A DNA stretch of 63,753 nucleotides, filler included, from Reclinomonas americana ATCC 50394 (taxonomy: Eukaryota): NCBI GenBank assembly GCA_048213135.1. It is 5 parts of one record of this genome, joined end to end, with 100 filler letters (N's around TTAATTAATTAA, not from the genome) between each part and the next. Parts side by side here need not be neighbours in the genome. Positions count along the whole stretch, not along the records: positions 1 to 10,397 come from PS015230.1; positions 10,498 to 24,409 come from PS015230.1; positions 24,510 to 42,019 come from PS015230.1; positions 42,120 to 49,154 come from PS015230.1; positions 49,255 to 63,753 come from PS015230.1. One strand, 5' to 3'. The position numbers were made by a program, and so were the translations under genes. Each line of letters opens with the position of its first letter. The first letter of the stretch is position 1. Of this stretch, positions 4,625-63,723 are shown in pieces. The notes beneath the pieces were generated by a model, which saw nothing but the letters and a program-made list of their open reading frames with translations, did no database searches and had not been told where the DNA came from.

Positions 4625-6957
4625 ATGTTCACGCAAACCACCATCGCCTGGCTGCTCGTGTGCTCCGGTGTGCTCATTGCCGCCTGCACCCTGCTCTGGC
4701 CTCGCCTCGGCCGCCCCAAGCGCAAGCGCCCTGCAGGCGTCCTCGTGCGCTTTGCACACGCCTCCCTCCGCTTCTTTGTCTCGTTCTACTCGCTGCTCTT
4801 TGTCTCGTCGCGTCGCTCAAGAAGACGCAGACGTCGTGGAGGTATGAGAAGTAGGGAGGCACGCGACACACACGCGCCCGCTGACTCATTGACTGACTGG
4901 TGCATTGCAGTCGCCGCCACTACTGCAGCACCAATCACCGCTGCTGCAGCTGCAGTGCCAACACCAACAACGGCAACAGCATCATCAGCAGCTGCTGCAT
5001 TGTGCGTCACGACTTGTCCGTTTGTCAATCGCGACTTGTCAACTCATTTGCATGTCATGCATGCACAGTGACGCGAGCAGCGGTCCGCTGGTGTCCTCGC
5101 TGCGCCGCCGCAACAGCGAGAGCAACAATGAGCGTCCTACGAAGACGGCCACGGCGCACGCGCGACTCCGCAATCGCCCGCGTCGCACCACGCTGCTGAC
5201 GTTTGCCGCCATGCCCACATCCGGCGCCAAAGCCACCAGTCCGCTCAAGTCAAGCCCAATCATGTCTTCATCGTCGTCGCCGATTAGTCCACGGTCCATG
5301 GACAGCGATGCAGACAACGATCTAAGTGCTGTCTTGTCGCCTGTCGTGGAGATTGCTGCAAGCACTCGACCTGCCGCTGTGCCCATGTTGCCGCTGGTCA
5401 NNNNNNNNNNNNNNNNNNNNNNNNNNNNNNNNNNNNNNNNNNNNNNNNNNNNNNNNNNNNNNNNNNNNNNNNNNNNNNNNNNNNNNNNNNNNNNNNNNNN
5501 NNNNNNNNNNNNNNNNNNNNNNNNNNNNNNNNNNNNNNNNNNNNNNNNNNNNNNNNNNNNNNNNNNNNNNNNNNNNNNNNNNNNNNNNNNNNNNNNNNNN
5601 NNNNNNNNNNNNNNNNNNNNNNNNNNNNNNNNNNNNNNNNNNNNNNNNNNNNNNNNNNNNNNNNNNNNNNNNNNNNNNNNNNNNNNNNNNNNNNNNNNNN
5701 NNNNNNNNNNNNNNNNNNNNNNNNNNNNNNNNNNNNNNNNNNNNNNNNNNNNNNNNNNNNNNNNNNNNNNNNNNNNNNNNNNNNNNNNNNNNNNNNNNNN
5801 NNNNNNNNNNNNNNNNNNNNNNNNNNNNNNNNNNNNNNNNNNNNNNNNNNNNNNNNNNNNNNNNNNNNNNNNNNNNNNNNNNNNNNNNNNNNNNNNNNNN
5901 NNNNNNNNNNNNNNNNNNNNNNNNNNNNNNNNNNNNNNNNNNNNNNNNNNNNNNNNNNNNNNNNTGAAGCGTTCGTTCTCATGCCTCTTTTCGATTGCTC
6001 TGTTCACCACCACTCACCCTTGCCTTGCCTCCTCTCAGTTATTCTCGCCGTGTCCAACTACATGAACCAGCAAGGTTCCGCCTTCCGCCGCAACGCCTCC
6101 GGCCTCAAGCTCGAGTCGCTCAAGGAAGTGCGTCCCTTGTCTTGCTTTGAGTGCATCAACGCCTTCACCACACACTCATCTCTCCTTTGTGCACGCAGTT
6201 GAAGAGCGTCGAGGGCCTGGGAGGCGTCGACCTGCCCACCTTCCTCGTGCAGCACTTCCGTGAGGCAAGTGCCTTCCTCATCCCACGCACTCTCTCGCTC
6301 CATCCATCCACCGACTCACCCACCTCCCTTTCTACAGCACGACGTCTCGGTGCTGGAACTGCGCGCAGATCTGGCCCACGTGCCTCTGGCCTCCACCGTC
6401 AACATGTCGGCCTTGAATGCCGAGGTGGCGGCCATGACGGCTGGCATGAGCCTCGTGCGCCACACGCTGCGCACGGTGGCCACCGCATCACCGCACAACA
6501 ACGATGCTTTCGAACTGCGCACGCCGCGTACCAAGCACAATGACGAGTGTCGCCTGGGCGAACGTATGCGCGAGTTCCTCGACTTTGCCGAGCCCGTCTT
6601 CCACACCGTGCAGACCACCGTCGTCCGCGCCATGGACGACGTGGCGGCACTGGCTCTCTACTTTGGCGAATTCAAGACGCTGCAGCAGGCGCGCGATAAG
6701 TTCGAATCGGAGCGCTTCTTCCGCAGCATGTCTGAGTTCCTCGGCGTCCTGGATGTTGCGTGTGTGGCTCACCCTCCCTGCAATCGTCGACACCAGTTTC
6801 TCACTCAAACAAACACACGCAGAATGCCATGATTACCAACACGAAAAAATCCTCAACTAGCGAGTGCACCACGCCTCGCGGACCAGTAGTGCGCTGCGGA
6901 GTGGTTACTCCGCGCGCGTCGGTGTGTCGCTCCCTGGAGAGCGATTTCTCTTGCTGA
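4625..6957 (+). CDS. Divergent formin (C-terminal FH2 region), probably with an N-terminal hydrophobic anchor; interrupted by an N-gap
   Basis: FH2-like ILAVSNYMN...NASGLKLESLKEL, LALYFGE and ERFFRSMSEFL in exons 6039-6957. Exons 4625-5400 encode a hydrophobic N-terminus plus an S/P-rich region. Linkage across gap 5401-5964 is inferred. Confidence 0.65.
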
Positions 6958-7180
6958 TCACCAACATGCAAACCACAACACGCATTCTTTCGTCTGATCT
7001 GTCCCTCCTATCTCTCTCTCCTCCCCACTCCTCAAACTGTCGGTGATCATGCGAACAACAGTGCACATAACTCCACAAAGTAGTCATCACTTGCGTCTGT
7101 CTCATTATGCTTTCTCTCTGTGAGCCTATGAATCTATGATAATATGTTTTCCGCGTGTACGTACATTCCCACTGCTTGTA

Positions 7181-62800: not shown

Positions 62801-63723
62801 GGCGCGCGGTTCCTCTCACGGGCGTGATCGCGACCGACAGCGCGACTCTGGCGACGCCGACAGCGGCAGCAAGTCGTCCAGCTCGCGTCGATCCAAGGAG
62901 AGCAGCAAGGAATCGTCGTCGTCATCATCTGCCGCCGTTGCCGCGGCACCAGAAGCCGCACCACCGGCTGTACCCAAGGGCGAGAAGCGCCGTCGACCGG
63001 AAGAGGAGACGGCAGAGGCGGCGGGCGACGATCGCGCCGTCAAGAAGGCGAACACCAAGGAGTCGATTGAGAAGGAGGTTTGCTGAATGTGTTGACCGCC
63101 TGCCGCATCAGTCGTTCTCATGTCACTCGGCCAGGCTGAGTTGAAGCGACGCATCGAGAAGCAAAACGAGGAGCGACGGGAGCGATTTGCATCGTTGCGT
63201 TTCAGAGAGAGAGAGAGAGACACTGTCAACGGGCACCGTGTGTGTGGGTTCTGTTCATCTCTCCTCACATTGACCACACAGGAAACCCAAGTCGGATGAG
63301 TCGAGCGCAGCAGGCAGCGGAGCTGCTGCTGCAGCCGCGGCTGCCGCACTGGCCTCTGCACCCGCCGCATCAGCCGCACCACCGCCACCAGCAGCAGCAT
63401 CGGAGCCGGCAGCCAGCAGCAGCAGCAGCAGCAGCAGCCGCAGCTCGTCGAAGCGCTCCTCCTCCAAGTCCGACGAACGCCGCGAACAGCGTCGCGAGAA
63501 GGAGGCCTCTGTCCCCGCACCAACCACTGATGATAGCACAACTGCCACAGCCGCAGCCGCCACCGATCCCGAAGACGGAACCGTCACACCGGGCACGGGC
63601 GGCGGCGGTCGCTCAAAATCGCGCAGCAGCAGCAAGCGCGGAACGTCGTCGTCCTCCTCGTCGTCGTCCCATCACCGATCCGATCGCAAGACGAGCTCCA
63701 GCAAGCCACCGGCGTCAGAGTAA
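53821..63723 (+). CDS. THOC2: THO complex subunit 2 with long S/A-rich C-terminal tail
   Basis: TRLLYTQEKFNLLREETEGYAK, SLIGQFDLDPNRVLD, HLLGFKF, LKRISTENV, KLSHANP, QIEAYSN, FLQTCVVPR, EYMDLRNAI; in-frame TAA at 63721. Confidence 0.95.

Follow-up and report, generated by a model that had tools for sequence, protein, structure and literature searches.

A predicted second class of 5' splice site, GTTGCGT, displaced by one base in a 64-kb window of the Reclinomonas americana genome

Introduction

One mechanistic question still open in splicing is how the 5' splice site selected by U1 small nuclear RNA (snRNA) passes, with single-nucleotide precision, to U6, U5 and Prp8; work on it has relied until now on rare sites in humans and mutant alleles in worms. 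The question is raised again by a stretch of 63,753 nucleotides from the genome of Reclinomonas americana ATCC 50394 (five parts of record PS015230.1 joined with filler; the whole stretch is called the window below). Many introns in its genes appear to begin with the word GTTGCGT, as if the ordinary GTGCGT-type consensus had been moved by one base. Are these words genuine 5' splice sites, and if so, by what would they be read? An examination of the DNA without database searches, here called the sequence-only reading, had named as donors 24 copies of the word (18 on the plus strand, six on the minus strand) and six variants, namely GTTGAGT at 57152 (+), 43494 (-) and 47538 (-), GTTTCGT at 33310 (+) and 48160 (-), and GTTGCAT at 38033 (-). 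Every one of these words is present where it was placed. In what follows, a slash marks the cut between exon and intron or separates the two ends of a junction.

Rare atypical human 5' splice sites of the GUUAAGU type, said to have been described by Roca and Krainer in 2009, reportedly pair with U1 in a register shifted by one base (+1). Both shifted and bulged registers of 5' splice site and U1 have been validated in human cells, where they account for about 1.5% of sites in total (PMC4856993). In Caenorhabditis elegans, the G-to-T change at +1 in unc-73(e936) creates a GU site that is used one nucleotide upstream (PMC9723624). Ostreococcus has a strong atypical donor consensus, GTGCGTG (Irimia and Roy, 2008; PMC2483917), and two classes of 5' splice site defined by LUC7 show a trade-off between exon-side and intron-side strength (bioRxiv 10.1101/2022.12.07.519539).

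Junctions required by conserved proteins

Together with the rarer GTTGAGT, GTTTCGT and GTTGCAT, GTTGCGT very probably makes up a second group of true 5' splice sites, and an abundant one, in predicted U2-type GT-AG introns, as judged from homology and statistics. Homologues were fetched for two of the genes concerned, Aquarius and malic enzyme, and a spliced profile-to-genome aligner was written for the analysis. In the junction scan, all frame-compatible pairs of exon end and exon start were scored against 35-61 homologues, and neither GT nor AG was required at the intron ends. As a positive control, the same unconstrained scan recovers ordinary G/GT donors.

In six introns of Aquarius and one of malic enzyme the cut falls at GTTGCGT (Table 1). 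The GT-AG pair at the junction required by the protein lies in the top-scoring class at 17576, 17686, 17842, 19837, 19993 and 33663; at 18145 no other GT-AG pair scores as high, and its junction, 18144/18212, reaches 7296 where the best of the 1846 unconstrained junctions reaches 7356. The sequence-only reading had placed the cut before the G from the Aquarius residues QQSD-Y-ILLSL, and this placement holds, as splicing of 19837..19898 restores the conserved stretch and the junction is the unique top of its scan. A cut after the G is excluded at 17686 and 19837 because the next exon begins with a base other than G. A GT-AG profile alignment of the whole Aquarius gene recovered all but one of the six sites; the exception was 17576, for which it chose the inner GT at 17581, a choice that the local scan reversed. 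With all six introns removed, an open frame of 1213 codons is obtained, and the other two frames contain 24 and 23 stops. For the malic-enzyme variant at 33310..33372, the unconstrained alignment gives an intron of equal length displaced by 6 nt. Among the 21 introns verified by homology, G is the last exon base in 13 of the 14 ordinary ones and in none of the seven of the GTTGCGT class (P=6.9e-5).

For THOC2, a search with the interval 57580-58077 as query returned no homologue at E up to 1e-5. When exon translations were compared with solved structures, three of four matched human THOC2 colinearly and one gave no match. The exons flanking 59890..59933, an intron that removes an in-frame TAG, align in order with residues 738-822 and 859-911 of human THOC2. 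The exon that follows the intron at 60397 corresponds to residues 976-1069, and the 55-codon exon before it fits the gap 921-975 by length. The profile for the choline-transporter-like protein was drawn from three full-length distant relatives; its alignment is too loose for exact junctions and does not reach the N-terminal half, where 49554 and 49715 lie.

Counts of the word in the window

The word can also be counted without recourse to gene models. On the two strands of the window there are 36 copies of GTTGCGT, against an expectation of 11.07 +/- 3.53, and none of 100 dinucleotide-preserving shuffles reaches that number. It is preceded by T in 15 copies, by C in 12, by A in nine and by G in none, and GGTTGCGT is absent from the window. 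G precedes just 75 of the 539 other GTTG words (13.9%), a general depletion against which its absence from all 36 copies has P=0.0045 (Fisher 0.009). The 'never G' before GTTGCGT is therefore significant yet milder than it seems at first, because G is scarce before GTTG generally.

Within the 34,700 bases of Pfam-supported gene segments, GTTGCGT is found 20 times in the sense and once in the antisense orientation. This strand asymmetry is the highest among GT heptamers after that of the microsatellite word GTGTGTG, which is itself strongly sense-biased in the gene segments (79 vs 23). Of the words that differ at +3, GTAGCGT does not occur in these segments, GTCGCGT occurs twice in each orientation and GTGGCGT four times in each, so that T alone is seen at +3. 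Not every copy serves as a donor: that at 17284..17290 (+) lies within the homology-covered Aquarius exon 17265-17362, and those at 21037 and 54085 are antisense to genes and hence not donors.

Use of the class in gene models

Three gene finders were applied. The first, based on codon usage and bare GT and AG, was noisy: it gave 95 introns, many of them implausible, and used six GTTGCGT donors. The second is likewise agnostic about the donor beyond GT, with an acceptor and branch score added that rewarded branch and YAG motifs in both classes alike; it gave 133 introns, and 57 'other' donors among 111 were largely noise and were not used. Its donors comprise 15 of the 36 GTTGCGT copies and 118 of the 7,422 other GTs (Fisher 1e-17). 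The third, called the gene model here, adds a donor term that covers the intron side, was trained on the two verified classes and favours both motifs; the exon side is not used. It contains 105 introns in sense-oriented segments, four of which are without Pfam support and were oriented by their own predictions.

The GTTGCGT class makes up 29 of these 105 modelled introns (28%), with 23 GTTGCGT donors and six variants. An association of the class with exons that do not end in G, which the sequence-only reading had offered as a test, is marked in the gene models: G stands at -1 in none of the 29 class donors and in 33 of the 40 ordinary GTG[ACT]GT donors (Fisher 3.5e-13). Seen from the exon, the class is used at 29 of the 51 ends without G and at none of the 54 ends with G. 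The further claim that the last exon base is never G stands for the 29 modelled and seven verified sites, and none of the 36 copies of the word is preceded by G. Phase 2 is enriched in the class (11/23), the exon-final base then being a second codon position, which fits coding constraints deciding which donor class is used. Position +5 of the class is C in 18 and A in two of 20 sites; the corresponding +4 of ordinary donors is C in 15, A in 12 and T in seven of 34. Past -1G, ordinary donors have almost no exon-side consensus (-2 is A in seven, C in eight, G in nine and T in ten of 34).

That the sites named by the sequence-only reading are donors is thus borne out, by homology or by models, for GTTGCGT as a frequent donor class. 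The part that does not carry over concerns 6755, 47688 and 53832, at which only a downstream branch and AG module is found. Four further copies, at 8522, 10026, 38939 and 43610, act as modelled donors beyond those named earlier. Two sites compete, in that the gene model pairs 43610 with the acceptor that the donor-agnostic finder gave to 43494.

The heptamer carries a second GT at +6, and finders that lack a donor model slide there or nearby (6755-6766, 17576-17587, 49554-49577). At 6755 the gene finders chose the inner GT at 6760, and at 49554 the donor-agnostic finder took an in-frame GT 18 nt downstream. Since such finders often slid to the inner GT of GTTGC/GT, annotation with a single donor matrix is likely to misplace these junctions. 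A few donors with T at +3 do follow G: cag/GTTTGT, atg/GTTTGC and ccg/GTTGGT, at 33107-33173 (+), 39509 (-) and 39156 (-), the first supported by tblastn exon ends. They keep G at +5 and so belong to the ordinary register, with no exception to the rule.

The rest of the intron

Beyond the donor, introns of the class resemble their neighbours. Median length is 70 nt in the class and 71 nt in ordinary introns; a CTSAY branch motif is present in 25 of 29 and 28 of 40, at a median of 21 and 19 nt from the 3' end; and a YAG end is present in 29 of 29 and 39 of 40, respectively. Because length, branch motif and YAG end are common to both, the class is assigned to ordinary U2-type introns. The commonest branch-like motif in either class is CTCAC, which accounts for 16 of 28 in ordinary introns and for 16 of 25 in the class, ahead of CTGAC, as in 17205-17264 and 19610-19681.

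Two other origins were considered and rejected. U12-type introns share with the class a long, near-invariant 5' motif that is independent of -1G; the U12 motif is RTATCCTT, which GTTGCGT is not, and a TCCTTAAC-type branch site was found in none of the 29 class introns, which have the ordinary branch, distance and YAG. Mobile copies of the introner kind were discarded after an all-vs-all masked blastn, which returned four intron pairs, none within the class. Class introns share nothing beyond the heptamer and simple repeats.

Genes and source sequence

The window is intron-rich eukaryotic sequence of 63.7 kb with a GC content of 49-62% and 17 N gaps. Its genes were identified by Pfam matches to single open frames across the window (Table 1). 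Among 120 relatives compared, Aquarius has its best identity, about 50-54%, with green-algal proteins; in a 37-row tree it forms a long, isolated and unresolved branch that is not inside the green algae. Aquarius, which hosts the best-verified sites and at least 18 introns, is itself a spliceosome component, an intron-binding helicase. The tandem WD40 genes, at 25513-26694 (-) and 28289-29392 (-), are closely similar, with near-identical Pfam profiles of their long open frames, and the local sequence around GTTGAGT is identical at 26491 and 29261.

Many of the longer introns are filled with GA/CT and GT repeats. A layout of 44 N, 12 bases and 44 N recurs at 10398-10497, 24410-24509, 42020-42119 and 49155-49254; it looks like an artefact of assembly or masking and not like biology. 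No snRNA gene was found in the window with Rfam, which gave no family at gathering scores and, at E up to 0.5, eight weak matches, none of them to an snRNA. The sub-threshold matches at 49020-49383 and 12885-12991, to the Hsp83 3' UTR (untranslated region) and to plant miRNA (microRNA) families, lie well under their gathering scores (42.6 against 90 bits or less) and are read as chance or composition.

Table 1. Donors and introns assigned to the GTTGCGT class, two introns of the ordinary class, and genes of the window (lower case, last exon bases)
Feature	Position	Strand	Basis
Candidate donor, gat/GTTGCGT, end of formin FH2 domain	6755..6761	+	FH2 match ends about 6749; CTCAC...CACGCAG module downstream
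Intron, cca/GTTGCGT, 70 nt	8073..8142	-	Gene model; 3' module
Intron, gtc/GTTGCGT, 68 nt	8455..8522	-	Gene model; 3' module
Intron, gac/GTTGCGT, 62 nt	8718..8779	-	Donor-agnostic finder and gene model
Intron, gtc/GTTGCGT, 60 nt (multiple of 3)	9004..9063	-	Gene model; 3' module
Intron, att/GTTGCGT, 67 nt	9960..10026	-	Donor-agnostic finder and gene model
Aquarius intron, att/GTTGCGT, 63 nt, phase 2	17576..17638	+	Junction 17575/17639 top (tie of 2) of 585; donor-agnostic gene finder
Aquarius intron, tca/GTTGCGT, 62 nt, phase 1	17686..17747	+	17685/17748 unique top of 553; GT-AG profile alignment
Aquarius intron, cat/GTTGCGT, 71 nt, phase 2	17842..17912	+	17841/17913 top (tie of 4) of 487; gene finders, GT-AG alignment
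Aquarius intron, cca/GTTGCGT, 67 nt, phase 0	18145..18211	+	Best GT-AG pair; gene finders, GT-AG alignment
Aquarius intron, act/GTTGCGT, 62 nt, phase 1	19837..19898	+	19836/19899 unique top of 1437, 61 homologues
Aquarius intron, cct/GTTGCGT, 80 nt, phase 2	19993..20072	+	19992/20073 top (tie of 3) of 1886; GT-AG alignment
Intron, ttc/GTTGCGT, 89 nt	21596..21684	-	Gene model; 3' module
Malic-enzyme intron, variant cga/GTTTCGT, 63 nt	33310..33372	+	GT-AG profile alignment; donor-agnostic gene finder
Malic-enzyme intron, cct/GTTGCGT, 66 nt (multiple of 3, open in frame)	33663..33728	+	Unconstrained profile alignment; best equivalence class includes GT-AG pair
Intron, cga/GTTGCGT, 64 nt	37812..37875	-	Donor-agnostic finder and gene model
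Intron, variant caa/GTTGCAT, 64 nt	37970..38033	-	Donor-agnostic finder and gene model
Intron, tct/GTTGCGT, 76 nt	38864..38939	-	Donor-agnostic finder and gene model
Intron, variant aca/GTTGAGT, 83 nt	43412..43494	-	Donor-agnostic finder
Candidate donor, aga/GTTGCGT	43604..43610	-	Gene model; CTGAC...GACAG module
Intron, variant ggt/GTTGAGT, 79 nt	47460..47538	-	Gene model
Candidate donor, cgc/GTTGCGT	47682..47688	-	CTCAT...CCATGCAG module about 76 nt downstream only; chosen by no model
Intron, variant cat/GTTTCGT, 82 nt	48079..48160	-	Donor-agnostic finder and gene model
Choline-transporter-like intron, cct/GTTGCGT, 74 nt	49554..49627	+	Gene model
Donor, gtc/GTTGCGT, acceptor uncertain (573 nt modelled)	49715..49721	+	Gene model
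Choline-transporter-like intron, ttt/GTTGCGT, 244 nt	52021..52264	+	GT-AG alignment to profile of 3 distant homologues; weak support
Candidate donor, gca/GTTGCGT	53832..53838	+	CTCAC...TCGCAG module downstream only; chosen by no model
Donor, cca/GTTGCGT, long THOC2 intron spanning N gap	55428..55434	+	Donor-agnostic finder and gene model
THOC2 intron, tac/GTTGCGT, 68 nt	56842..56909	+	Gene model
THOC2 intron, variant cga/GTTGAGT, 428 nt	57152..57579	+	Both donor-agnostic finders and gene model
THOC2 intron, gat/GTTGCGT, shortest frame-restoring form 44 nt	59890..59933	+	All three gene finders
THOC2 intron, caa/GTTGCGT, 517 nt	60397..60913	+	All three gene finders
THOC2 intron, att/GTTGCGT, 216 nt	61269..61484	+	All three gene finders
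Intron, atc/GTTGCGT, 88 nt	63194..63281	+	Donor-agnostic finder and gene model
Ordinary-class example, gag/GTGCGT, 73 nt	14980..15052	+	Top junction class, unconstrained scan
Ordinary-class example, tgg/GTGAGT, 72 nt	19610..19681	+	GT-AG profile alignment, homology-verified set
Formin gene	about 4.6-7.7 kb	+	Pfam
Aquarius gene (spliceosomal helicase)	12.4-20.4 kb (12460-20460)	+	Pfam
Tandem WD40 genes, two	25.5-29.7 kb	-	Pfam
Malic-enzyme gene	33.0-35.2 kb	+	Pfam
TIG/PAN protein gene	43.7-47.3 kb	-	Pfam
Choline-transporter-like gene	48.8-52.9 kb	+	Pfam
THOC2 gene	about 53-63.7 kb	+	Pfam

Reading of the displaced word

A single substitution, T for G at the second base, turns the ordinary heptamer GGTGCGT into GTTGCGT, and the G that stands at +5 of an ordinary donor moves to +6. 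The description given in the sequence-only reading, an ordinary consensus (G/GTGCGT) with one T added, fits, with T only at +3. The class thereby shows the sequence features of a shifted register: the -1 to +6 consensus is displaced by one base, U occupies +2 and +3, and both -1G and +5G are missing.

It is somewhat more likely than not that a two-register or two-reader code for the 5' splice site is routine in this lineage, in which the last exon base would decide whether G/GUGCGU or /GUUGCGU is bound. Such a code might rest on a U1 that must pair with the minus-one G and need not pair with the +1G, or on a second variant of U1 with a single base changed. Shifted reading by a single U1 is a serious candidate for the mechanism, though one that falls a little short of being probable. 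Under shifted reading, the early reader of the 5' splice site, most likely the 5' end of U1 snRNA, would recognize a seven-base word, G-K-T-G-C-G-T, whose first G is the last exon base at ordinary sites (G/GTGCGT). Where coding constraints bar an exon-final G, the first G of the intron would substitute for it and the word would be read one base further along (/GTTGCGT), with the +3U in the usual pairing place of the +2U and the +2U as the single mismatch. The cut itself would be placed afterwards, by U6, U5 and Prp8, at the sole GU present. With one mismatch already spent, the remaining word would be held nearly invariant, and the complementary distribution with -1G would arise as each exon end is selected for the best word open to it. 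The restriction of +3 to T favours the shifted register, since a shift requires T there and a free bulge does not, and the strict C at +5 (18 of 20) would follow from a tolerance limited to one mismatch.

Several observations weigh against this account. In the gene models, seven of the 40 core ordinary donors are preceded by a base other than G, so that an ordinary donor can do without -1G. Nearest-neighbour duplex energies, computed for modelled U1 5' ends and not for the organism's own U1, favour sites from which the T has been deleted: with the standard end the class pairs at -0.8 kcal/mol and its T-deleted form at -2.1, and with a GC-adapted end at -7.6 and -9.95, respectively. The base at -1 of the class (T, C or A, with no preference for A) is unlike the base at -2 of ordinary donors, G being found in none of 36 and in nine of 34. 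The class counts are model-based and come from the analysts' own gene finder, in which the donor term had been fitted to the intron side of both classes, and all of the evidence comes from one 64-kb window. The sequence-only reading had proposed that a shifted or bulged register is used routinely when the exon lacks -1G; the complementary -1G distribution and the T-only +3 speak for that idea, and the duplex energies and the seven ordinary donors after non-G speak against a simple version of it. Because the energies favour T-deleted sites, shifted pairing to a single U1 accounts for the preference only on the added assumption that the G facing the ninth base of U1 is specially needed; failing that, a variant snRNA would be involved. 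Either the minus-one G pair must be specially required, or there must be a second reader, such as a U1 with one base changed.

A dedicated snRNA, be it a U1 paralogue or another reader of the 5' splice site fully complementary to GUUGCGU, would set up two parallel codes; as the full explanation it is unlikely. The extra T costs pairing energy with every single U1 end that was modelled, and an A opposite the +2U would give a perfect 7-bp match. The stricter C at +5, compared with +4 of ordinary donors, could point to a different reader, but the limit of one mismatch explains it equally well. A perfect-match reader should, moreover, tolerate variants as ordinary donors do, and few are seen (six, against 23 GTTGCGT). 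Divergent snRNAs that escaped detection have been raised for Ostreococcus, although a single spliceosome was judged likelier there (PMC2483917).

Less likely again is a bulged register, in which U1, U6 or both would pair normally and one U of +2/+3 would be looped out. Registers with a one-nucleotide bulge at +2/+3 have been validated experimentally in human cells (PMC4856993), and once U6 takes over, the GCGU block stands one base farther from the cut than in ordinary sites, so that some looping-out is needed whatever U1 does. A looped base need not be T, however, and here the extra base is always T. Nor does the exon side conform: in a normal register -1G stays favourable as an additional pair, yet it is found in none of the 36 copies. 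The one structure obtained, with the GC-adapted U1 end, is a shifted pairing with an internal mismatch and no bulge.

It is improbable that no special mode of reading exists and that GTTGCGT is a weak variant tolerated at exon ends without G, arising for instance by T-slippage, read mainly by U6, U5 or proteins, and uniform through mutation bias or sampling. The general depletion of G before GTTG makes the -1 pattern partly background, and the seven ordinary donors after non-G agree with such tolerance, but seven nearly invariant positions, the 20:1 strand bias and one word at 29 of 51 non-G exon ends are far too ordered for it. That the sites are unspliced or belong to another intron type, whether as artefacts of hand-made models, U12-type introns or mobile introner copies, is hardly credible and largely refuted: 6755, 47688 and 53832 are confirmed by nothing beyond a downstream branch and AG module, but unconstrained homology scans place junctions exactly at the motif, the branch motif equals that of ordinary introns with no U12-like one among the 29, and the class introns show no similarity to one another after simple repeats are masked.

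Comparison with known systems

Human sites of the GUUAAGU type, as reportedly described, resemble the class in starting with GU-U, in having G at +6 and not at +5, in lacking -1G and in being cut before GU; they too correspond to the normal -1 to +6 consensus with U as its second base. They are rare and carry the block AAGU, whereas here a near-invariant word with GCGU is found at about 28% of modelled introns, in strict complementary distribution with -1G. Human registers with a bulge at +2/+3 or an asymmetric loop likewise have one extra nucleotide between GU and the +4 to +6 block (Tan et al., 2016; PMC4856993); they are unlike the present class, in which the extra base is T only and -1G is avoided, a pattern that a shift fits better. 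The '-1' donor of unc-73(e936) has the same geometry, xx/GU-U, cut one base upstream of the original site (PMC9723624). That donor is a mutant cryptic site beside others, whereas here many introns have the displaced site as their conserved, constitutive form.

The LUC7 classes are also two donor classes split by exon-side (-1G) and intron-side consensus, but they use one common register (10.1101/2022.12.07.519539), whereas the intron-side consensus found here has moved by one base. Ostreococcus shares the GTGCGT-type ordinary consensus and the question of snRNA co-evolution; in the accessible text on it, no one-base-shifted second class is reported (PMC2483917). GTTGCGT or GUUGCGU as a splice motif was not found in the main texts of the papers searched; a whole-word search for GUUGCGU returned only an unrelated paper on Toll-like receptors.

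Significance

A displaced word at a quarter of introns, used under a simple exon-end rule, is described for none of these known systems; it is very probably real and probably new. The GTTGCGT class looks like the routine use of a mode of splice-site reading that is known elsewhere only as a rare exception. If this is true, the definition of the site and its cutting would come apart by one nucleotide in roughly every fourth intron, and U1 (or a paralogue of it), and perhaps also U1C, Luc7, Prp8 or SNRNP27K, would be expected to carry specific changes. The organism would then offer a natural system for the handover question, in which a displaced site is normal at about one in four introns and is chosen by the absence of an exon-final G.

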